A DNA stretch of 64,000 nucleotides from NCBI GenBank assembly GCA_024636295.1, contig JAGXHI010000028.1, positions 21,565 through 85,564 of the forward strand. The letters are read 5' to 3'. This DNA comes from Desulfuromonadales bacterium. GTDB taxonomy: Bacteria; Desulfobacterota; Desulfuromonadia; Desulfuromonadales; JAGXHI01. The position numbers were made by a program, and so were the translations under genes. Positions 29,272 to 45,409 of the stretch are shown piece after piece; position 1 is the first letter of the stretch; each line of letters begins with the position of its first letter. The notes under the pieces were generated by a model. That model saw nothing but the letters and a program-made list of their open reading frames with translations, searched no databases and had not been told where the DNA came from.

Positions 29272-30066
29272 ATGCCAGAGGTTCATTCCACGGCTTTTGT
29301 AGATTCTACGGCCCGACTCTCCGAAGGAGTCAAGATAGGTCCTCAGGCCTATATCGATGCCGATGTCGCCATCGGGAGAAATACGCGGATCGGCCATGGC
29401 GCCCACATTGGACGCTGGACTACAATGGGAGAGGACAATATCGTTTATCCGGGCGCGGTCATCGGACATGATCCCCAGGATATCGGTTATCGTGGGGAAG
29501 AAGCCTACACGGTGATCGGAAATGGAAATATTTTTCGCGAAGGAACCACTGTCCACCGGGGCAATCGGGGGGGGACTTCTACGCAGATCGGCGACGGCAA
29601 TTTTTTTATGGTCAACAGCCATGTGGCGCATAACTGCCTCATCGGAAATCATGTGATACTTGTCAACGGTTCCCTTCTCGCCGGCCATGTACAGGTGGAT
29701 GATCGAGCCATCATTTCCGGCAATTGCCTCGTGCATCAGTTCGTCCGGATCGGACGCCTCGCATTGATGCGCGGCGGATCGGGAGCCGGAAAGGATATCC
29801 CTCCCTTCTGCATCAACGATCAGCTGAACTGGATCCGGGCTCTCAATCTTGTTGGACTGCGCCGAAACGGATTTGACCAGGGACAAATCGGGGCGCTTAA
29901 GAAGGCATTCCAGATCCTGTTCCGCAGCAATCTCAAACTCAGCGATGCTCTTCTGAAAATTGAGGAGCAGGTGGAACCCACCGAAGGTGTCCGGGTCCTG
30001 CTCGATTTCATCCGCTCCAGCAAAAGGGGGATTGCCGGCGGCCGAAACAGGAATGTGGGGGAGTAA
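29272..30066 (+). CDS. lpxA: acyl-ACP--UDP-N-acetylglucosamine O-acyltransferase
   Basis: 264 aa. Left-handed beta-helix hexapeptide repeats plus an LpxA C-terminal helical domain. Confidence 0.85.
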   Translation: MPEVHSTAFVDSTARLSEGVKIGPQAYIDADVAIGRNTRIGHGAHIGRWTTMGEDNIVYPGAVIGHDPQDIGYRGEEAYTVIGNGNIFREGTTVHRGNRGGTSTQIGDGNFFMVNSHVAHNCLIGNHVILVNGSLLAGHVQVDDRAIISGNCLVHQFVRIGRLALMRGGSGAGKDIPPFCINDQLNWIRALNLVGLRRNGFDQGQIGALKKAFQILFRSNLKLSDALLKIEEQVEPTEGVRVLLDFIRSSKRGIAGGRNRNVGE

Positions 30067-30070
30067 AAAA

Positions 30071-30553
30071 ATGTCCTTCAATCACTTCGATGCCTCGGGA
30101 AAGGCGGTGATGGTCGACGTCAGCGGAAAGGAAATAACTCTGCGCACTGCTGTGGCCCGTGCGCGGGTTCACCTCAAACCTGAAACTCTGCGTGAAATCC
30201 GGGAAGGCAAATTGGCCAAGGGAGATGTTCTTGCGGTCGCCCGGCTGGCGGGGATTTCCGCCGCCAAGAAAACGCCTGATCTCATCCCTCTCGCGCACCC
30301 ACTGGCCATCCATCACGTATCGGTTGACTTCTCTGAGTTCCTGGACCAGGGCCACCTCGATATCACCGCCACTATCAAGGCGGCAGAAAGAACTGGTGTG
30401 GAAATGGAGGCGATGGTTTCCGCAACGGTGACCGCCCTGACCATCTATGACATGTGCAAAGGAGCGGACAAGAGCATTTCGATCGGGGAAATCGTTCTTT
30501 TGTACAAAGAAGGGGGCAAAAGCGGCATCTTTCGAAGGGATGAACAGGAATGA
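30071..30553 (+). CDS. moaC: cyclic pyranopterin monophosphate synthase MoaC
   Basis: Start chosen at MSFNHFDASGKAVMVDVSGK. Also KGDVLAVARLAGISAAKKTPDLIPLAHP. Confidence 0.9.
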   Translation: MSFNHFDASGKAVMVDVSGKEITLRTAVARARVHLKPETLREIREGKLAKGDVLAVARLAGISAAKKTPDLIPLAHPLAIHHVSVDFSEFLDQGHLDITATIKAAERTGVEMEAMVSATVTALTIYDMCKGADKSISIGEIVLLYKEGGKSGIFRRDEQE

Positions 30554-31047
30554 ATGTCGCCATTCTGACCATCAGCGACAGAAGCTTTCGCGGGGAAAGA
30601 GATGACATGACAGGGCCGGCCCTGAAATCCTGGCTGGAAGCCCGAGGGGTAGCGGTGCTTGCCATGATGGTCGTTCCCGATGAGGAAGATGCCATTTCGC
30701 ACACACTCCAGGAATGGGCCGACGACAGGGCGTTTGATCTCATTATCACCAACGGCGGGACCGGGGTTGCACCAAGAGACGTGACTCCTGAAGCGACACG
30801 GAAGATCCTCCACAGGGAAATTCCCGGCCTGAGCGAGATCATGCGCCTGAAGAGCCTTGAGAAAACCCCCATGGCTGTCCTCTCCCGGGCCATCGCCGGC
30901 AGCCGGGGCCGAACCCTGATCATCAACCTTCCTGGAAGCCCGCAGGGGGCGGTGGAAAATCTCGAAGCGGCCTGGCCCGCGATTCCACACGCTGTAGCCA
31001 AAATCCAGGGAGATCCGAGCGACTGCGCTCCCCTGGAAGAGGCATGA
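30550..31047 (+). CDS. mog: molybdopterin adenylyltransferase MogA/MoaB family
   Basis: 165 aa. LIITNGGTGVAPRDVTPEAT motif. Overlaps moaC by 4 bp. Confidence 0.85.
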   Translation: MNVAILTISDRSFRGERDDMTGPALKSWLEARGVAVLAMMVVPDEEDAISHTLQEWADDRAFDLIITNGGTGVAPRDVTPEATRKILHREIPGLSEIMRLKSLEKTPMAVLSRAIAGSRGRTLIINLPGSPQGAVENLEAAWPAIPHAVAKIQGDPSDCAPLEEA

Positions 31048-34795: not shown

Positions 34796-34845
34796 AAGAT
34801 GAAATCTACAAACCTGACGAAATTCACAGCCGGAGGATCTGGAAA

Positions 34846-35593
34846 TGCGAGATAATGATGAACTTAAATCTTTAGTCCTTCAGAAGTACCAGAAAGCGGC
34901 AGAACCGCGGAAGAACTATTCAATTTTCCGACGGGGACGGGCGGAACAAGAGCTCTGGGCTACAATCCTTACATGATCAAGGCAGCTCCCGAAGATATGA
35001 TGAAGAGTTACTGCGGAGTGGGCAATCCCTTCACCCTGAGAAATGTGATTCCCGACACCGACCTTCTGGATGTGGGGTGCGGTTCGGGCTTCGACCTTTT
35101 CTGTGCCAGCCATGCCGTTGGCCCTCTGGGAAAAGTCTTTGGAATAGACTTATCTCCGGCCATGGTGGCAAAGGCCGAAAGGGGATTGGCGAAAACGGGG
35201 CGGCAAAATGCCGAGGTGAAAGTCGCAGATGCCGAAAACCTGCCCTTCGAAGAAGGAAAATTCGATACGGTCATCTCAAACGGAACCCTTAATCTGATTC
35301 CCGATAAGGAGCGTGCTGTATCAGAAATTTATCGTGTTCTCGCTCCCGGCGGTTATTTTTTATGTGCCGATATGGTCCGCAGGGAGGATGCGCCTCCAGT
35401 TGATGGTGAAAGGCGCGACTGGGACCAATGAATCGGAGGTGCCGTCCCGGTCGGGGATGTGATAAAAATGCTTAAAAAAGTTGGCTTCGGTGAGGTTGAA
35501 TACAGGGGGACCAGCGGTTTCGTCTCTTCTCAGATGACGGAAAGTGCCTTGTTCAGAGCCCGGAAACCCGAGGTCGGGATTAAAATGAAGTAG
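34846..35593 (+). CDS. ArsM/UbiE-like class I SAM-dependent methyltransferase; candidate selenoprotein (in-frame UGA 35429-35431) with apparent 1-nt frameshift near 34917-34921
   Basis: ORF 34973-35431 (GVGNPF, LDVGCGSGFD, ISNGTLNL). It continues in the same frame after the TGA for 53 codons (IGGAVPVGDVIKMLKKVGFGEV...ALFRARKP). The TGA sits where homologs have the Cys of the W..C(I/V).GA motif. The N-terminal MRDNDELKSLVLQKYQKAAE is in another frame. Confidence 0.6.
35442..35460 (+). promoter_or_regulatory. SECIS-like hairpin downstream of UGA
   Basis: Stem CGUCCC(35443-35448)/GGGAUG(35454-35459) with apical loop GGUCG, starting 12 nt after the UGA. The GGUC loop resembles the E. coli fdhF SECIS apical loop. 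Confidence 0.5.
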
Positions 35594-35681: not shown

Positions 35682-36170
35682 GACTTAACTATAACCTTCC
35701 CAGTCTTCTTTTGTCAACCCCTTCCCGCTTTAAAAATCCACACCTGCGAAATGATCAACTTCTCCAGCGATGGCGCCGATTCCTGTTTCTGAGATCCTGA
35801 TTTTTCCGGCGGGAATTTCGTCGTTGTATTTTCTTATGGCAAATGGTAAGGTATAAAACATTGTTTGTTAAGTCTGTTGGTTTTGATTTTTTTCGAACTC
35901 TCTCGATATTGAACACCAAACCATTTTCAGGCTCGAATTCTTTATGCACATATTTCCCCTCGGCATTAATGCAACCCCCATTTCGGGAAACGATTTTTTA
36001 TTGATCCGGGGATTTTCATTTTCCCCGCTGGAAGATTGCCACCCGTTCCTGCGATTCGTCTCTGGGGTGGCTGACTCCGGCAAGACACGGGACACAACAC
36101 CGACCGCTTGATTCCCATATCCATTCGGCTGTCGGAACCCGAATCCCCATTCCAACACTTCGAGGATGTG

Positions 36171-36785
36171 ATGAAAAGAATAATCATTCTGCTGAAACTG
36201 AGTGTTTTGGGAATCGTATCGGCCGGGTTACTGGGGTTATTGACCGTATCGTCGGAAGCCGCCCGGGAAAAGTACTTTGATCGTTCGGGCAGGCTCATCG
36301 TCATTGATAAACCTGCAGCCGACCTCCTACGTACCTACGACACCAAGAATCGACCCCCGGAAAAGTCCTTTCCCGTCCCCCCTCCCCCCTTTACGGAAGG
36401 AATCTTCCCCTGCTCGGACTGCCACGAAGGCATGGAGCCGAATCTGCAGCGCAGAACACTGGAAGACATGCACACCGATATCCTGCTGAATCATGCCGAG
36501 GGACAGCGCTGGTGCCTGGATTGCCACAATCCCGAAGACAGGGACACACTCCGTCTGGTTTCCGGCGAAGTGATTCCTTTTTCCGAATCCTACCGCCTGT
36601 GCGGCCAGTGTCATGGCGATAAATACCGGGACTGGCGCAAAGGAATACATGGAAAGCGTACGGGGTTCTGGAACGGGGACAAGGAATATCTTCTGTGCGC
36701 TCACTGCCACAATCCGCATGACCCGCGATTCAAACCGATTCACCCCATGCCGCCGCCAGAACGCCCGGCGAGAGGACCGCATTAA
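36171..36785 (+). CDS. membrane-anchored tetraheme cytochrome c (module 1)
   Basis: Start at MKRIIILLKLSVLG (GAGGA upstream). Four CxxCH motifs (CSDCH, CLDCH, CGQCH, CAHCH). Confidence 0.85.
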   Translation: MKRIIILLKLSVLGIVSAGLLGLLTVSSEAAREKYFDRSGRLIVIDKPAADLLRTYDTKNRPPEKSFPVPPPPFTEGIFPCSDCHEGMEPNLQRRTLEDMHTDILLNHAEGQRWCLDCHNPEDRDTLRLVSGEVIPFSESYRLCGQCHGDKYRDWRKGIHGKRTGFWNGDKEYLLCAHCHNPHDPRFKPIHPMPPPERPARGPH

Positions 36786-36819
36786 ATACCGTCAACCATC
36801 TGCTGTGGGAGATCGACAG

Positions 36820-37746
36820 ATGTCGGAAAAGAAAAAGTGCGACCCCCGAGTTTTTCAACTGTCCCGCCGCAAAGCCCTGAAGGGGCTAGCGGCCGGAGTC
36901 GGCGTCCTGGCCATCCCCTCTCCAAAAGCTTCAGCGTCGGTCTGGGAATCTTTTTTCCAGAAACATTTCAAAGAGCTCAGCAAAGAAGACCTGCCGAAGG
37001 TGCTTGCGCGAATGGAAGAGCAATACAGCCGGGAATATGGCAGGCCGGTGACAGTAAAGGCGACTCCTCATATCGAAGGGGTCAAATTCGGCTATGGCCT
37101 TGATCTTTCTCGCTGCGTCGGCTGCCGCCGTTGCGTATATGCCTGCGTCTCGGAAAACAATCAGTCTCGCGAGCCCCAGATACATTGGATTCGCGTTGTT
37201 CGGCTGAACAAGGAAAAGGGGATCGACCTCAGTGAAGCCGAGCATTATTACAATCCCAGGGAAGTCCCGGAAAAAGGGCACTTTTACCTGCCCGTCCAGT
37301 GTCAGCAGTGCGAGAACGCTCCCTGCACAAAGGTCTGCCCGGTTCAGGCCACATGGCGGGAAAACGACGGCATCATCGTTGTCGACTACAACTGGTGCAT
37401 CGGATGCCGATACTGCATGGCCGCATGTCCCTACGGCGCGCGCCATTTCAACTGGCGAAAAAGCCGGATTCCAACCGATGAGTTGAATCCGGATACCCAC
37501 TATCTCGGCAACCGGCCCCGCCCGGTAGGAGTCGTCGAGAAATGCACCTTCTGCATTCAAAAAACCCGGGAGATGCCGGGGCGATATCCGGCCTGCGAAG
37601 AAATCTGTCCTGTCGGAGCCCGCAAGTTCGGCAATCTTCTCGACCCCGAGAGCGAAATTCGATACCTGATCGAAAATAAACGTGTTTTCCTTCTCAAAGA
37701 AGACCTGAACACTCAGCCCAAGTTCTTCTATTTCTACGGGTCCTAA
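36820..37746 (+). CDS. periplasmic 4Fe-4S cluster protein, NrfC/HybA/DsrO-like, Tat signal (module 1)
   Basis: Start at MSEKKK...SRRKALKGLAAGVGVLAI (twin-arginine). Four Cys clusters (CVGCRRCVYAC, CQQCENAPC, CIGCRYCMAACP, CTFC...CEEICP). Confidence 0.85.
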   Translation: MSEKKKCDPRVFQLSRRKALKGLAAGVGVLAIPSPKASASVWESFFQKHFKELSKEDLPKVLARMEEQYSREYGRPVTVKATPHIEGVKFGYGLDLSRCVGCRRCVYACVSENNQSREPQIHWIRVVRLNKEKGIDLSEAEHYYNPREVPEKGHFYLPVQCQQCENAPCTKVCPVQATWRENDGIIVVDYNWCIGCRYCMAACPYGARHFNWRKSRIPTDELNPDTHYLGNRPRPVGVVEKCTFCIQKTREMPGRYPACEEICPVGARKFGNLLDPESEIRYLIENKRVFLLKEDLNTQPKFFYFYGS

Positions 37747-37779
37747 TCGGTTACGGGATCTAACCGGCGGAGCGAAATC

Positions 37780-39108
37780 ATGAAGGAAATCTGGCATTTT
37801 TACAAAGGGACGTTCGTCCTGGTCGGCAAGGGGAGCAAAGCTTATTACATCTGGGTGGGGGCTCTTCTGGTGCTGATGGCAATCGGCGCGGCCGCGTATG
37901 TACAGCAACTGAACCAGGGCCTCGCCCTCACAGCCATGACCGATCAGGTCTCCTGGGGGTTCTATATCTCCAATTTCACTTTTCTGGTCGGAGTTGCCGC
38001 CGCGGCGGTCCTGTTGGTCATTCCCGCATACGTTTATCACTGGAAGCCGATCAAGGAAATCGCCGTTCTCGGCGAGCTGCTAGCCATCTCCGCCATTGTC
38101 ATGTGCCTTCTTTTCGTAACAGTCGATATCGGCCGACCCGATCGCTTCTGGCACCTTATTCCCGGCATTGGAATTCTGAATTTCCCCAGTTCGCTTCTGG
38201 CGTGGGATGTTATCGTTCTGAATGGTTATCTCATTCTCAATCTGGTGATCGCCGTATATATCCTCTATAACATGTACTACCGCCGCGAACCCAACAAGAG
38301 TTTCACCACTCCTCTTCTCCTGCTCTCCATTCCCGCGGCAATCTCTATCCACACGGTCACTGCTTTTCTCTACAATGGACTGGGCGCCCGCCCTTTCTGG
38401 AATGCTTCGATTCTGGCGCCACGCTTTCTTGCTTCGGCCTTCTGTTCAGGCCCTGCGTTCATGATTCTGGTTTTCCTTCTGATTCGTCGATATACCCGCT
38501 TCAACATAAAAGACGAAGCCATCCACAAGATTGCCGAACTGATCGCTTACGCAATGTTCATAAACCTTTTCCTCCTTGGCGCTGAAATTTTCAAAGAATA
38601 TTACACCGACACTCTCCACCTCGCGCCGATGAAATACCTGTTCCAGGGCCTTCACGGCCATTCGGCCCTTGTTCCCTGGATCTGGACGGCCCTGCTGTTC
38701 AATATCTCGGCCTTTCTTATCTTCCTTGTGCCCGAGACCCGCAAAAACCACGTTACTCTTGTGCTCGGCTGCATTCTGATTTTCATCGGCGTCTATATTG
38801 AAAAAGGAATGGGACTGATCATTCCCGGTTTCGTACCGGACGTGCTGCATGAAATTTATGAATATTCCCCCACGGGAATCGAACTCCTTGTGACCGCTGG
38901 GATATGGGCGACCGGGTTTTTCGTTTTCACCATGCTCCTGCGGGTAGCCATTCCAATTCTCAACGGAGATTTCCACGTGTCAGATGATGGGGTTGGATAC
39001 TATATCGGAGACCAACTTTTTTTCATACCGAGTCGGAAAAGGGGAGCACAGGGACAGGGAAGACTGGGTACTGCCAGGGACTCGGCTGCTCCCGAAGTGA
39101 ACAACTGA
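37780..39108 (+). CDS. NrfD/PsrC-like integral membrane quinone-interacting subunit (module 1)
   Basis: 442 aa polytopic membrane protein. The N-terminal region resembles NrfD-family subunits of the HmcC/DsrP/ActC type. Confidence 0.8.
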   Translation: MKEIWHFYKGTFVLVGKGSKAYYIWVGALLVLMAIGAAAYVQQLNQGLALTAMTDQVSWGFYISNFTFLVGVAAAAVLLVIPAYVYHWKPIKEIAVLGELLAISAIVMCLLFVTVDIGRPDRFWHLIPGIGILNFPSSLLAWDVIVLNGYLILNLVIAVYILYNMYYRREPNKSFTTPLLLLSIPAAISIHTVTAFLYNGLGARPFWNASILAPRFLASAFCSGPAFMILVFLLIRRYTRFNIKDEAIHKIAELIAYAMFINLFLLGAEIFKEYYTDTLHLAPMKYLFQGLHGHSALVPWIWTALLFNISAFLIFLVPETRKNHVTLVLGCILIFIGVYIEKGMGLIIPGFVPDVLHEIYEYSPTGIELLVTAGIWATGFFVFTMLLRVAIPILNGDFHVSDDGVGYYIGDQLFFIPSRKRGAQGQGRLGTARDSAAPEVNN

Positions 39109-39134
39109 AAAAGAAAAGGAGCATTCTCCCTCCG

Positions 39135-39160
39135 CTCCGCCAAAAGATCTTTTGGCGGAG
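39135..39160 (+). terminator. stem-loop terminator after module 1
   Basis: Perfect 26-nt palindrome ctccgccaaaagatcttttggcggag, followed by caatttctt. Confidence 0.6.
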
Positions 39161-39408
39161 CAATTTCTTAAAGACAGTGAGGCTGACGACATGCGCAATA
39201 TAGCCGTTCGCAAACCGCACGCGAAAAGCCGAGGGTTGAAGCGTTCATAAGGAAATCTCCGAAGAGCCCAAAAACCTGCCTCAATCCATTTACAGGTAAA
39301 GCTGAACTCAATATTTCACCCGTCGGATGGAATTGACGATGTTTTATTTATTTCTTTATAAAAACACTTGAATTTAAAATTTTTATCCCCTCAAATCCAT
39401 GATACTTA

Positions 39409-39437
39409 TTGACAAATAAGGAATAAACTCCTATTTT
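39409..39437 (+). promoter_or_regulatory. sigma70-type promoter candidate for module 2
   Basis: TTGACA 39409-39414, 17-nt spacer, TATTTT 39432-39437, within a strongly AT-rich stretch. Confidence 0.45.
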
Positions 39438-39533
39438 AAAATCCCATATCACACCTGACCGCCGAGATTTTTGCGGCGCCTTTTTTTGTCAGGACCTCAT
39501 CTGTCTCATCATTTTACAAAGGGGAAAAAAGCA

Positions 39534-40022
39534 GTGAAGAATCACGTTTGGAGACCCCTCATCGTGGTCATAGGAATTGTTCTCGCTATTCTTGTTTTCC
39601 GACTCTTTTACGTCCCGAACGATTTCGAATCAGGGGAAAGAGGCTTCATGTACAGTTATTATCGCCAGTCCAACGAGTTGGAGTGGGAAAACCAGCCTAT
39701 CAAATACCTGGACACCGGAAAGCAGCACATGCATGAATTCTGCATCGAGTGCCATAGCCACGAAGTCGAAATCCGGACGGAGGATCTGCATGGCGTCATT
39801 GCCTGTGAAAACTGCCATGGACCTGCCCTCGACCATCCGATACATCCGGAAAAGTTGGAAATAGATCGCAGCCGCGAAGTCTGTCTCCGATGTCATACTC
39901 TTCTCACCTATACCACCAGCGAACGAAAACGGATTCCCGGCATTGACCCAAAGGAGCATATGACGGAATATGAATGCGTCGAATGCCACAACCCGCACAA
40001 TCCGAGACTGGAGGACATGTAA
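39534..40022 (+). CDS. membrane-anchored tetraheme cytochrome c (module 2)
   Basis: GTG 39534 is preferred (AAGGGG upstream). One TM segment (RPLIVVIGIVLAILVF). Four CxxCH motifs (CIECH, CENCH, CLRCH, CVECH). Confidence 0.85.
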   Translation: MKNHVWRPLIVVIGIVLAILVFRLFYVPNDFESGERGFMYSYYRQSNELEWENQPIKYLDTGKQHMHEFCIECHSHEVEIRTEDLHGVIACENCHGPALDHPIHPEKLEIDRSREVCLRCHTLLTYTTSERKRIPGIDPKEHMTEYECVECHNPHNPRLEDM

Positions 40023-40795
40023 TGAAGAGGCGAGATTTTCTGAAAAAGTCCATTCTTGTCATTGCCGGCGCCTCGGTCCCCCTGTCGGCTCTCCAGATGG
40101 TCGACCCGAAAAAGGTGCTGGCGGAGAACTTAGATATCCATTGGGCGTTCCTTATCGATACTTTCAAATGCGTTGGCTGCGGTTTCTGCGTTAAGGCCTG
40201 CAAGACGGAAAATAACATTCCTTTTGAGGCAAACGTCACCCGGACCTGGGTGGAACGATACGTCTATACCAAAGATGACCGCCGGTATATCGACAGCCCG
40301 AAGGGCGCCCTCTACGGTTATACCGATCCGCGCATCGATATGGGAATGGGGGAATACAAGGAGATCGACCCGGACAATGTCGGAAAAGCATTTTTCGTTC
40401 CCAAACTCTGTAATCACTGCATAACCCCGCCCTGCACCCAGGTCTGCCCGGTCGGGGCCACATATAAAGCGGACAATGGAGTCGTTCTGGTCGACCGCTC
40501 CTGGTGCATCGGCTGCGGCTACTGCATCATGGCGTGCCCCTACGGCGCCCGCTTCTTTCATCCGACTCTGCATGTGGCCGACAAATGCACTTTCTGCTAC
40601 CACAGGATTACCAAAGGGATGGACACGGCCTGCGTCAACGCCTGCCCTTTTGGCGCGCGAAAAATGTGCAACATCAGGGACATTGATGATCCGATCACCA
40701 AGATCATCATGAATCAGCGGGTGGGGGTCCTCAAAGACGAATTCGGCACCAAGCCCCAGGCTTTCTACATCGGTCTTGCCCAGGAGGTACGTTGA
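40022..40795 (+). CDS. periplasmic 4Fe-4S cluster protein, NrfC/HybA/DsrO-like, Tat signal (module 2)
   Basis: MKRRDFLKKSILVIAGASV Tat signal. Four Cys clusters (CVGCGFCVKAC, CNHCITPPC, CIGCGYCIMACP, CTFC...CVNACP). Overlaps the cytochrome stop (TAATG). Confidence 0.9.
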   Translation: MKRRDFLKKSILVIAGASVPLSALQMVDPKKVLAENLDIHWAFLIDTFKCVGCGFCVKACKTENNIPFEANVTRTWVERYVYTKDDRRYIDSPKGALYGYTDPRIDMGMGEYKEIDPDNVGKAFFVPKLCNHCITPPCTQVCPVGATYKADNGVVLVDRSWCIGCGYCIMACPYGARFFHPTLHVADKCTFCYHRITKGMDTACVNACPFGARKMCNIRDIDDPITKIIMNQRVGVLKDEFGTKPQAFYIGLAQEVR

Positions 40796-40797
40796 TC

Positions 40798-42153
40798 ATG
40801 ATTGAACAAGTTGCCCAGCACGCAATGCAGGTTCATGGCGAAGCCTGGACGGTTAAGGAGCTTTTCGTTCTCCCCAATGAATATATTTATTGGTCGATCC
40901 AGATCGTCATGTATCCTTTCATGACGGGACTTGTGGCCGGGGCCTTTGTACTCTCGTCGCTCTATCATGTTTTTGGAGTGAAGAAGCTCAAGGAAATCGC
41001 AAGATTTTCTCTCGTGTTCTCTTTCGCCCTCCTTCCGGTGGCCATGATGCCGTTGCTGCTGCATCTTCAGCAACCCTTACGGGGGATAAACGTCCTTATG
41101 ACGCCGCACTTCACATCGGCCATTTCCGCTTTCGGCATTGTCTTTCTGACCTACTCCTTCATCGTCGCCAGCGAACTCTGGTTCGAATACCGCAAGCATT
41201 TCGTCCTGACCTACAGCAGACTGGAAGTCCGCCTTGATCTCGGTTTTTTTGATAATCTCAGGCGCCTGTTTTTCAAGACGCTTACCCTCGGCGCCTTTGA
41301 CATCAGCGAAGAAGCGCAGGAAAAGGACCACAAAGCCGTCAAGGTCCTTGCATCCATCGGAATTCCGATCGCTTGCTTTCTCCATGGCTATGCCGGTTTT
41401 ATTTTCGGCTCCGTCAAGGCGAACGCTCTCTGGATGACTCCACTGATGCCCGTCATCTTTATCTGCTCCGCCGTGGTCTCCGGTATCGCTCTGTGCATAC
41501 TGACTTATGTCCTTACACAGGAAATCCGCAAATTCATGGCGCGACGGCGTATAGCCCGGTGGGCCAAAGATACCGGCGCACCAAGTTTCGAAGAATTACG
41601 GGGAGCCGAAGAGCAGGAAGTCAGGACGGTGTCCAATTACCTGCTCTATTTCATGATTGCTGCAATCACCCTCGAAATCCTCGACCTGATTTTCCGCGGC
41701 TACACCCAGGTCAAGTCATGGGATATTCTTCGCGAAGTGATCATGGAAAGAGATTTCTTCAAAATCTTTATCCTTCAATACACCATCGGCAATGCCTTGC
41801 CTTTTCTTATGATGATCTGGCCGAACCGCTCGGTTCGCCGGGTTACCGCAGCCTCGGTTCTCATTCTTTTCGGGGTTTTCATGATGCGATGGAACGTGGT
41901 CATCGGCGGTCAGGCATTCTCGCTCAGCTTCGCCGGGTTCATGCACTATCACATGCCGATCATTCCCCACAATTGGGAAACATTCAAAGAAGGATTTTTC
42001 GGAGCACTGACGGTAATGATCACTCCCTTCGTTATCTTCTATTTCCTGAATAAAATATTCCCGGCATTCCTCAAAGATGATGAAAGTGTTGAAGAGTTTG
42101 AAGGGGTAAATGGAAAATCGGCTCCAGAATTTTCAGCAACCCGGCCGTACTGA
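40798..42153 (+). CDS. NrfD/PsrC-like integral membrane subunit (module 2)
   Basis: The ORF opens at 40792 (TTG). ATG 40798 is preferred (AGGAGG 10 nt upstream). About 451 aa polytopic membrane protein of the NrfD family. Confidence 0.85.
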   Translation: MIEQVAQHAMQVHGEAWTVKELFVLPNEYIYWSIQIVMYPFMTGLVAGAFVLSSLYHVFGVKKLKEIARFSLVFSFALLPVAMMPLLLHLQQPLRGINVLMTPHFTSAISAFGIVFLTYSFIVASELWFEYRKHFVLTYSRLEVRLDLGFFDNLRRLFFKTLTLGAFDISEEAQEKDHKAVKVLASIGIPIACFLHGYAGFIFGSVKANALWMTPLMPVIFICSAVVSGIALCILTYVLTQEIRKFMARRRIARWAKDTGAPSFEELRGAEEQEVRTVSNYLLYFMIAAITLEILDLIFRGYTQVKSWDILREVIMERDFFKIFILQYTIGNALPFLMMIWPNRSVRRVTAASVLILFGVFMMRWNVVIGGQAFSLSFAGFMHYHMPIIPHNWETFKEGFFGALTVMITPFVIFYFLNKIFPAFLKDDESVEEFEGVNGKSAPEFSATRPY

Positions 42154-44607: not shown

Positions 44608-44768
44608 TTTTTGATGGCGTCGCAAAAAGTCCGCCCTACGGCGTTACGGCGTTTTTTCAGGACCTCGACATACCTGATGTATGCCTTCGCCCCTGAAAAA
44701 CCATCAGGCCTTGTAGGACGAAATTTTTGCTTAGCCATCCTCTGAGTTTTTGCGAAGGCATCATTTTT
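44608..44768. repeat. ~160-bp inverted-repeat element (MITE-like or structured RNA)
   Basis: Terminal inverted repeats gatggcgtcgcaaaaa (left) and tttttgcgaaggcatc (right) match 14/16. Internal pairings: ttttcagg/cctgaaaa, cctgatg/catcagg, and atgccttcgc(44681-90)/gcgaaggcat(44751-60). Confidence 0.45.
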
Positions 44769-44805
44769 CAAATCGAAAATTTGTCACTCCCTTCGATGGC
44801 CAGCA

Positions 44806-44985
44806 TTACAGAATCCCCCGTATGACATCCCCTGGAATGGGTGGCGCATACCGTCCGTTCCTCCCGTTCATTCCTTCTGAATAAAACATGGCATTCAGGA
44901 CGGCCTCTTCCGTAGCCTCGATGACGGCTTCATACAGCAGATTCACGATATTGTCCCGACGAATTCGATGCCTAGAAGCCCCGGA
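44806..44985 (-). pseudogene. C-terminal remnant of a DmpA/P1-family aminopeptidase gene
   Basis: The minus strand reads ...RDNIVNLLYEAVIEATEEAVLNAMFYSEGMNGRNGRYAPPIPGDVIRGIL-stop (TAA at 44806-44808). In-frame stops occur immediately upstream, and no N-terminal part is present. Confidence 0.6.
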
Positions 44986-45124
44986 CTCTCCTTGGCCTCA
45001 CGGCTAAAAGAATCTGACTCCCCTTCAATCCTCTCCGCCCTTCCCCCGACTCCTGGAATTTTGATACTATTTTCTCAATGGAAAGCTGTCGGGGACATGG
45101 ATCTGCATGGCATCTTCTGGCTCC

Positions 45125-45232
45125 TGAAAACAAAAAAAGCCCCGAAAGCAGGAGGGAAGCCTTTCGGGGCAAAATTGGAAACCCGCGTCCGGGTTTCCAG
45201 GAAATTCTAGGGTAAATTAAGGTAAATTCTGA
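45125..45232 (-). ncRNA. sRNA candidate B with CCCUCCU terminator loop
   Basis: Minus strand: TTGACA (45265-45260), 17-nt spacer, TAATAT (45242-45237). Its 5' region has three AAUUU(A)CC repeats. A 9-bp hairpin GGAAACCCG-GACG-CGGGUUUCC follows. The terminator is GCCCCGAAAG/CUUUCGGGGC plus U7. Confidence 0.55.
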
Positions 45233-45409
45233 AATTATATTACCTCATGTGCAGTAAAATGTCAATTTTGCCTCCAAGGCTCCAAGCTACCGTTCTTAAA
45301 GGTTTTTATCGATCTCGATAACCGCTTCGTACGGCTCGAAAATGTATTCAAAAGATCCTTTTCGTCTCTTTGCCTCCTGTGGTACATTGACGAGTAAGGA
45401 GGACGCCCG

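Follow-up and report, generated by a model that had tools for sequence, protein, structure and literature searches.

A predicted selenocysteine-containing methyltransferase of the ArsM/AS3MT superfamily, with a SECIS-like hairpin downstream of its in-frame UGA, in a Desulfuromonadales genome

Introduction

In the window, by which we mean the whole 64,000-nucleotide stretch of Desulfuromonadales DNA analysed here, a methyltransferase reading frame stops at a TGA and the same frame then stays open for another 53 codons, raising the question whether this UGA encodes selenocysteine (Sec) or whether it reflects decay of the gene, its ordinary end or the insertion of some other amino acid. A preliminary description, made from the sequence of the locus, had proposed Sec and had pointed to reports of Sec-containing SAM-dependent methyltransferases. 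Such a family is indeed recognised: arsenite methyltransferase, with the motif UxxG, is listed among the experimentally verified prokaryotic selenoproteins (PMC13188914 Table 1; PMC9312934), PMC9312934 citing Fomenko et al. 2007 in Science for it, and Peng et al. 2016 counted 41 sequences of Sec-containing arsenite S-adenosylmethyltransferase in 39 organisms (PMC5029168). Related curated models, NF047649, NF041536 and NF041537, are attributed in PMC13188914 to Haft and Tolstoy 2025. Here we ask whether the gene in the window belongs with these proteins, where it begins and ends, and what its active site suggests about its substrate.

Results

Extent of the gene and a single-nucleotide deletion near its start

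The internal TGA (35429-35431) lies in the frame of the ORF that opens at ATG 34973, is flanked by RRDWDQ and IGGA, and is followed by 53 open codons translating as IGGAVPVGDVIKMLKKVGFGEVEYRGTSGFVSSQMTESALFRARKPEVGIKMK, so that the predicted read-through peptide spanning the Sec codon is DWDQ-U-IGGAVPVGDVIK. All coordinates and sequences given in the preliminary description are correct. The ORF 34973-35431 covers only part of the gene before the TGA, for the family N-terminus begins at ATG 34845, in another frame; this start and the frameshift behind it had escaped the preliminary description. The features of the locus are as follows.

34832-34836, forward strand: Shine-Dalgarno site GGAGG, read from the sequence, 8 nt 5′ of the true start codon
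34845-34904, forward strand: coding segment 1, the first 20 codons (MRDNDELKSLVLQKYQKAAE), read from ATG 34845 and aligning with the family N-terminus (…KY.K.A…)
34903-34904, no strand assigned: site of the 1-nt deletion, AA in the window and AAA in an independent assembly, shifting the gene to the -1 frame
34905-35428, forward strand: coding segment 2, from the rest of codon 21 through Q195, the methyltransferase core
35429-35431, forward strand: UGA, the predicted Sec codon, residue 196 of the restored 249-residue protein, in the motif U-I-G-G (UxxG)
35432-35590, forward strand: C-terminal 53 codons (IGGAVPVGD...ALFRARKPEVGIKMK), translated only if the UGA is recoded
35443-35459, forward strand: predicted SECIS hairpin, 6-bp stem 35443-35448/35454-35459 with the loop GGUCG at 35449-35453
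35591-35593, forward strand: true stop TAG, read from the sequence

A family HMM built from 44 relatives was run against the six-frame translation of the window, and homology in the methyltransferase frame was found to start near 34901. Between the stop at 34865-34867 and ATG 34973, however, this frame contains no ATG, GTG or TTG. Searches for an out-of-frame N-terminus by pairwise tblastn and by an HMM of the N-terminus only gave weak matches (E = 0.04-5), and it was not these searches that settled the frameshift but one of two Logan contigs, from runs SRR13628065 and SRR13628066, found via the upstream DUF748 gene. Over 538 nt the contig from SRR13628066 (L085) differs from the window by a single extra A, located in an AAA at L085:910-912, so that it reads GGCAGAAACC where the window reads GGCAGAACC; on this contig the gene is called from the same ATG and its ORF is uninterrupted (MRDNDELKSLVLQKYQKAAETAEELFNFPTG...). 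When the extra A is restored in the window, the ORF reads ...KAAETAEELFNFPTG... across the site. The contig from SRR13628065 (L084) terminates at this very spot, which is compatible with, and hints at, read heterogeneity or low coverage at the deletion site. The copy in the window carries a 1-nt deletion at 34903-34904 that breaks the gene as assembled. In the independent assembly from the same population the gene is unbroken, so the deletion is either a consensus error or a minor allele. The true start is ATG 34845, giving a restored product of 249 residues with the predicted Sec at position 196; ATG 34973, where the annotated 152-aa ORF starts, has no Shine-Dalgarno site comparable to that of ATG 34845. 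Programmed -1 frameshifting at 34903-34904 was also considered and rejected, since the site lacks a slippery heptamer and the gene has an intact allele. The remaining long genes in the window are intact.

Upstream of the gene lie lpxA, moaC, a moaB-like gene, a cupin gene, cydAB and the DUF748/AsmA-like gene, and downstream of it two cytochrome c/4Fe-4S/NrfD modules. These modules stand in tandem at 36108-42153, each comprising a multihaem cytochrome c, a 4Fe-4S dicluster protein with a Tat-like signal and an NrfD-type membrane subunit, and no catalytic molybdopterin subunit was found near them. In the context given by the window, no ars genes adjoin the methyltransferase gene. Separately, no convincing ORF was seen in the 802 nt at 44608-45409, and Rfam gave no match there; the one TGA-split ORF in this stretch (44746-45210) looks non-coding in translation.

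The protein-coding frame is conserved across the UGA

An open stretch of 53 codons is by itself weak evidence of read-through, and we compared 80 related loci from GTDB species representatives, mostly of Nitrospirota (Thermodesulfovibrionia), Desulfobulbaceae, Syntrophobacterales and other Desulfobacterota. The aligned column is TGA in every one of the 80, never TAA, TAG or Cys, and each locus continues in frame into a conserved C-terminus of 44-59 residues, with longer fused tails in a few. The window protein is at most 49% identical to any of the relatives fetched. The preliminary description had taken the 53 codons for the expected C-terminus of the family, and the HMM search bears this out: the peptide behind the TGA, taken alone, matches positions 204-250 of the family HMM with E = 2.4e-14, the segment before the TGA matching the same model with E = 3.6e-68.

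The UGA aligns with Cys in a full-length homolog and in ArsM. A database protein of 252 aa (P0014) runs on through the column with Cys (SWAD-C-VAGTLPPGQ...FRAVK); in CmArsM the residue is Cys224, and three other solved ArsM structures show the GEC motif here, the corresponding segment being GEC(L)(G/A)GA. The preliminary description had set W..C(I/V).GA of related ArsM/UbiE-like enzymes beside RRDWDQ-U-IGGA, and the check it had named, whether the Cys column aligns with the UGA, comes out in favour of its proposal.

Some of the relatives have longer tails. Five loci (L058, L059, L066, L075 and L078) carry tails ending in ...CAPGG(S/T/A)-TGA-xPK-TGA, about 75 codons past the Sec codon, which is the UXPK-star double selenoprotein form. 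In another (L067) the extension runs to 190 codons, and in a further one (L052) another in-frame stop is followed by sequence that looks AhpD-like by eye.

A hairpin downstream of the UGA is conserved by compensatory changes

Twelve nucleotides past the UGA, a 6-bp stem with the loop GGUCG had been noticed, and this hairpin is present: it begins at the 12th nucleotide past the UGA and is formed by the pairs C35443-G35459, G35444-U35458, U35445-A35457 and C35446, C35447 and C35448 with G35456, G35455 and G35454. ViennaRNA predicts the hairpin, at -9.5 kcal/mol for the hairpin alone; the fold of 62 nt is no more stable than that of shuffled sequences (z = -0.12). Since such single-sequence features are weak, the case rests on comparative data.

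To this end we aligned 57 sequences of the subclade to which the window belongs (IGGA[IV][PS]V[RG]D), gap-free from the UGA. RNAalifold recovered the same helix independently, pairing columns 15-20 with 26-31 around a loop at 21-25. With the helix extended by the pair 21-25, 92% of the cells are paired, 49 cells show changes in both partners, and the covariation score reaches 0.349 versus 0.188 for shuffles. None of 500 shuffles reached the observed values of pairing, double change or covariation, and all slid registers scored lower; the covariation statistics ignore phylogenetic relatedness, and since the sequences are related and the hairpin lies within the conserved codons of the subclade motif, the p-values overstate independence. 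The clearest single case is the pair 16-30, between the first base of the Ile/Val codon and the synonymous third base of the Asp codon, which is AU in 33 sequences, GC in 17, GU in 5 and AC in none (Fisher p = 4e-10, subject to the same overstatement). Pair 19-27 is CG in 42, UA in 12 and UG in 2. At pair 15-31, where 52 of the 57 have G-C, the window alone has C-G, and this swap indicates that the hairpin was kept by compensatory change in the lineage of the window. In the loop, position +22 is G in 57/57 and position +23 is U in 53/57. Conservation of the hairpin in orthologs, which the preliminary description had named as a check on its proposal, is therefore found, with compensatory changes.

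The apical loop had also been likened to that of fdhF. Like the SECIS elements of E. coli fdhF and fdnG, the predicted element in the window is a hairpin in the coding region, immediately 3′ of the UGA, whose small apical loop opens with G-G-U, although its 6-bp stem, unlike theirs, has no bulged U. The fdhF loop is GGUC, and its G23 and U24 contact SelB; the subclade of the window has the corresponding G and U at +22 and +23. For bacterial SECIS elements (bSECIS), the published criteria are a loop of 3-9 nt on a stem of 4-16 bp, a G in the first two loop positions, a distance of 16-37 nt from the UGA and an MFE of at most -7.5 kcal/mol (PMC13188914). The hairpin in the window has all four properties, with a 5-nt loop on a 6-bp stem, a loop start of GGU, a spacing of 17 nt and -9.5 kcal/mol.

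A sister subclade (xGGAIPGKDFLA; L005, L022, L035 and 17 more loci) carries another conserved hairpin, CCGGGAAA-GGA-UUUCCUGG, at +18 to +37 from the TGA, and the family therefore has at least two SECIS variants.

Selenocysteine compared with decay, termination and other decoding

Taken together, the UGA of this gene aligns with Cys, is conserved exclusively as UGA with coding sequence 3′ of it, and is followed by a hairpin with the properties of a bSECIS, which are the sequence hallmarks of a bacterial selenoprotein gene. From these features we consider it very likely that 34845-35593 encodes a 249-residue SAM methyltransferase of the ArsM/AS3MT superfamily with Sec196 at the UGA 35429-35431, and that the hairpin 35443-35459 is a bacterial SECIS. 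Against this reading count the frameshift in the copy of the window and the finding that the 64-kb window holds no selA, selB, selD or tRNA-Sec gene (selC), nor did a scan for TGA-interrupted ORFs in the window bring up another credible selenoprotein gene; two TGA-split ORFs, at 44746-45210 on the forward and 29939-30739 on the reverse strand, were discarded, as their translations look non-coding or overlap lpxA, moaC and the moaB-like gene on the opposite strand.

Among the alternatives, a decaying pseudogene, in which the TGA would be a nonsense mutation and the frameshift at 34903-34904 a second lesion, survives best and is nevertheless improbable. The copy in the window does combine a frameshift with an in-frame stop, and Sec machinery was not seen within the 64-kb window. 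Decay is at odds, however, with a TGA that is the ancestral state of the clade in 80/80 loci, with the retention of all invariant family residues, with a C-terminus still conserved at E = 2.4e-14, and with a hairpin retained through the C-G swap; moreover, the frameshift is missing from the otherwise identical independent assembly. This particular contig may carry a null allele of recent origin, the selenoprotein gene being otherwise functional.

That the UGA is a true terminator is very improbable. The product would then be a truncated methyltransferase of 195 residues, the 53 codons being untranslated or part of a separate small ORF (GTG 35459, 44 aa). Gene callers do end the gene at this point, in the window and in about 100 homologs: in a search of 5.8 billion proteins, about 100 of the 120 best matches are ~202 aa long and end two residues past the invariant Trp, exactly where the ORF in the window ends. 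The check that the preliminary description had suggested, whether homologs stop here, comes out in favour of Sec: the annotated proteins are cut short at this point, but the DNA of 80/80 loci continues in frame past the TGA. TGA is also the usual stop in the window, closing 31 of the 45 long ORFs. Against termination stand the frame continuity and amino-acid conservation across the TGA in the 80 loci, and the fact that the internal codon is always TGA whereas all three stops serve as genuine terminators of these genes (TGA 30, TAA 30, TAG 16), so that the exclusive use of TGA internally is not compositional. Furthermore, the downstream segment matches structural elements of solved ArsM, with (I/L)GGA right after the position of the catalytic Cys, and the putative small ORF has no conserved start. 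As a separate observation on stop usage, the TAG that ends the predicted selenoprotein gene is rare here, closing 2 of the 45 long ORFs in the window as against 31 for TGA and 12 for TAA.

The most remote of the alternatives is decoding of the UGA as Trp, Gly or Cys by a reassigned code or by general read-through, for which nothing specific speaks beyond the unconfirmed Sec machinery of the organism: TGA is a normal stop and the commonest one in the window, so that there is no reassignment of the code, read-through of TGA is required by no further gene of the window, so that the recoding is local as expected for Sec, and the conserved hairpin with its invariant loop G and SECIS spacing is the signature of SelB-dependent recoding, the residue aligned in homologs being Cys.

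The predicted selenocysteine aligns with a catalytic cysteine of ArsM

The restored protein has the fold of a class I SAM-dependent methyltransferase, as it matches the Pfam families Methyltransf_31, _11 and _25 at E = 1e-24 to 1e-29 and carries motif I as LDVGCGSG. Other landmarks of the core are Cys57 (SYCGVGNPF), ISNG147 and W193. Its three best NCBIfam matches are the curated selenoprotein models NF041537 (3.9e-74), NF041536 and NF047649, the generic ArsM model NF008823 coming next, and the window protein reaches the cutoff of none of the four. In a phmmer search against the PDB, residues 46-219 align with ArsM structures at E = 1e-14 to 4e-22, namely with CrArsM (5EVJ, 3.9e-22), 8XT7 and CmArsM (4FR0 and its relatives, ~3e-14). 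The window protein shares with canonical ArsM/AS3MT (CmArsM 4FR0/4FS8/4FSD; CrArsM 5EVJ) the SAM-binding Rossmann core and, as WDQ-U-IGGA, the counterpart of (W/Y)xxC(I/L)(G/A)GA.

In this alignment the UGA column falls on Cys224 of CmArsM, the numbering of which we verified by counting (VISNC174, GEC224LGGAL) and which is equivalent to Cys206 of human AS3MT (Cys206/207 of AS3MT). The predicted Sec196 is thus placed, by alignment, at the position of a substrate-binding catalytic Cys next to the methyl group of SAM. In CmArsM, Cys72, Cys174 and Cys224 bind As(III) and all are needed for the first methylation, and C174A and C224A abolish both methylation steps (PMC3877260); according to PMC3877260, it was Fomenko et al. 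2007 who identified Cys157 and Cys207 of mouse AS3MT. Here the window protein differs from CmArsM. Of the conserved cysteines 44, 72, 174 and 224 of CmArsM it keeps only the last, as the predicted Sec: its N-terminus is short and has no Cys, the position of Cys72 is Val59, with Cys57 two residues earlier (SYC57GVGNPF), and the position of Cys174 is Gly147 (ISNG147TLNL). Two of these features recur through the clade: among 76 relatives the upstream Cys never varies, and in place of SNC 73 have SNG and 3 have SSG. Judged by its aligned residues, the clade lacks the cysteine triad of canonical ArsM, though it has the predicted Sec in the same active-site position. The window protein does not qualify as canonical ArsM by NF008823, scoring 162.3 bits against a cutoff of 263. 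With Gly in place of Cys174, the clade may act on a substrate other than arsenite.

Relation to catalogued selenoprotein families

The closest described relatives are the Sec arsenite (S-adenosyl)methyltransferases, with which the window protein shares the superfamily, the predicted position of Sec, a U-I-G-G that fits UxxG and a SECIS-like element directly downstream, and from which it differs by the Gly at the Cys174 position and by its NF008823 score below the cutoff. The representative of that family is WP_011987699.1. With NF047649 (methyltransferase/UXPK-star double), NF041536 (ArsM/DUF2284) and NF041537 (ArsM/AhpD) the likeness spans the methyltransferase domain from end to end, Sec column included, the alignments to these fusion models covering query residues 2-248. 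Members of these fusion families are among the fetched loci, for instance L058, L059, L066, L075 and L078, and L067 with its long extension. The window protein, however, lacks a second Sec as well as any AhpD, DUF2284 or UXPK tail, and its scores are 249 against a cutoff of 510 for NF041537, and 236 against 575 for NF041536 and against 460 for NF047649. It is therefore no member of these multi-Sec fusion families; it ends at TAG 35591-35593, 53 residues past the predicted Sec.

Discussion

Our analysis indicates that the methyltransferase gene in the window is a selenoprotein gene, and on this reading its expression can be pictured as follows. SelB, with GTP and Sec-tRNA(Sec), would bind the apical GGU loop of the hairpin while the ribosome stands on the UGA. 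Delivery of Sec would compete with release factor 2, and translation would then go on for 53 codons to the TAG. Both the incorporation of selenium at the UGA and the binding of SelB are what we infer from the sequence features of the locus.

In the active site, the selenolate, probably with the clade-invariant Cys57, would bind a soft metalloid or chalcogen substrate during methyl transfer. The suggested proximity of Cys57 and Sec196 comes from the alignment. Alternatively, the Sec may cycle through a selenenylsulfide during methyl transfer.

The combination of an invariant (F/Y)CGVGNP Cys with W-x-x-U-x-G-G, and of both with the lack of a Cys at the ArsM Cys174 position, marks the clade with SNG at that position (the SNG clade). 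Its members occur widely across Nitrospirota and Desulfobacterota; no curated model is dedicated to them, and nearly all are annotated as truncated proteins of 202 aa. That this stand-alone form of ~250 residues is a selenoenzyme with another substrate or another chemistry, and not an arsenite methyltransferase, is a tentative suggestion that we regard as rather doubtful. If it were, it might for example methylate selenide, tellurite, sulfide or some other soft metalloid bound between Cys57 and Sec196, or relay the methyl group through Se-methyl-selenocysteine.

The gene described here is a new, fairly divergent member of an already catalogued selenoprotein family, and it leaves what is known of Sec decoding and of the existing Sec-containing ArsM-like enzymes unchanged. 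Only two features stand out mildly: the clade as a whole has lost the Cys174 position, and the stand-alone form has no model of its own. For biochemistry it poses a modest question, that of the substrate, as only the Cys224 equivalent of the arsenic-binding triad is kept, and that as a predicted Sec. Its practical value lies in annotation: here the gene call covers a fragment of 152 aa, whereas the true product would be a selenoprotein of 249 residues, and the calling of about 100 of its 120 closest database relatives as ~202-aa fragments that end at the Sec codon amounts to a systematic truncation of this family in public annotations.
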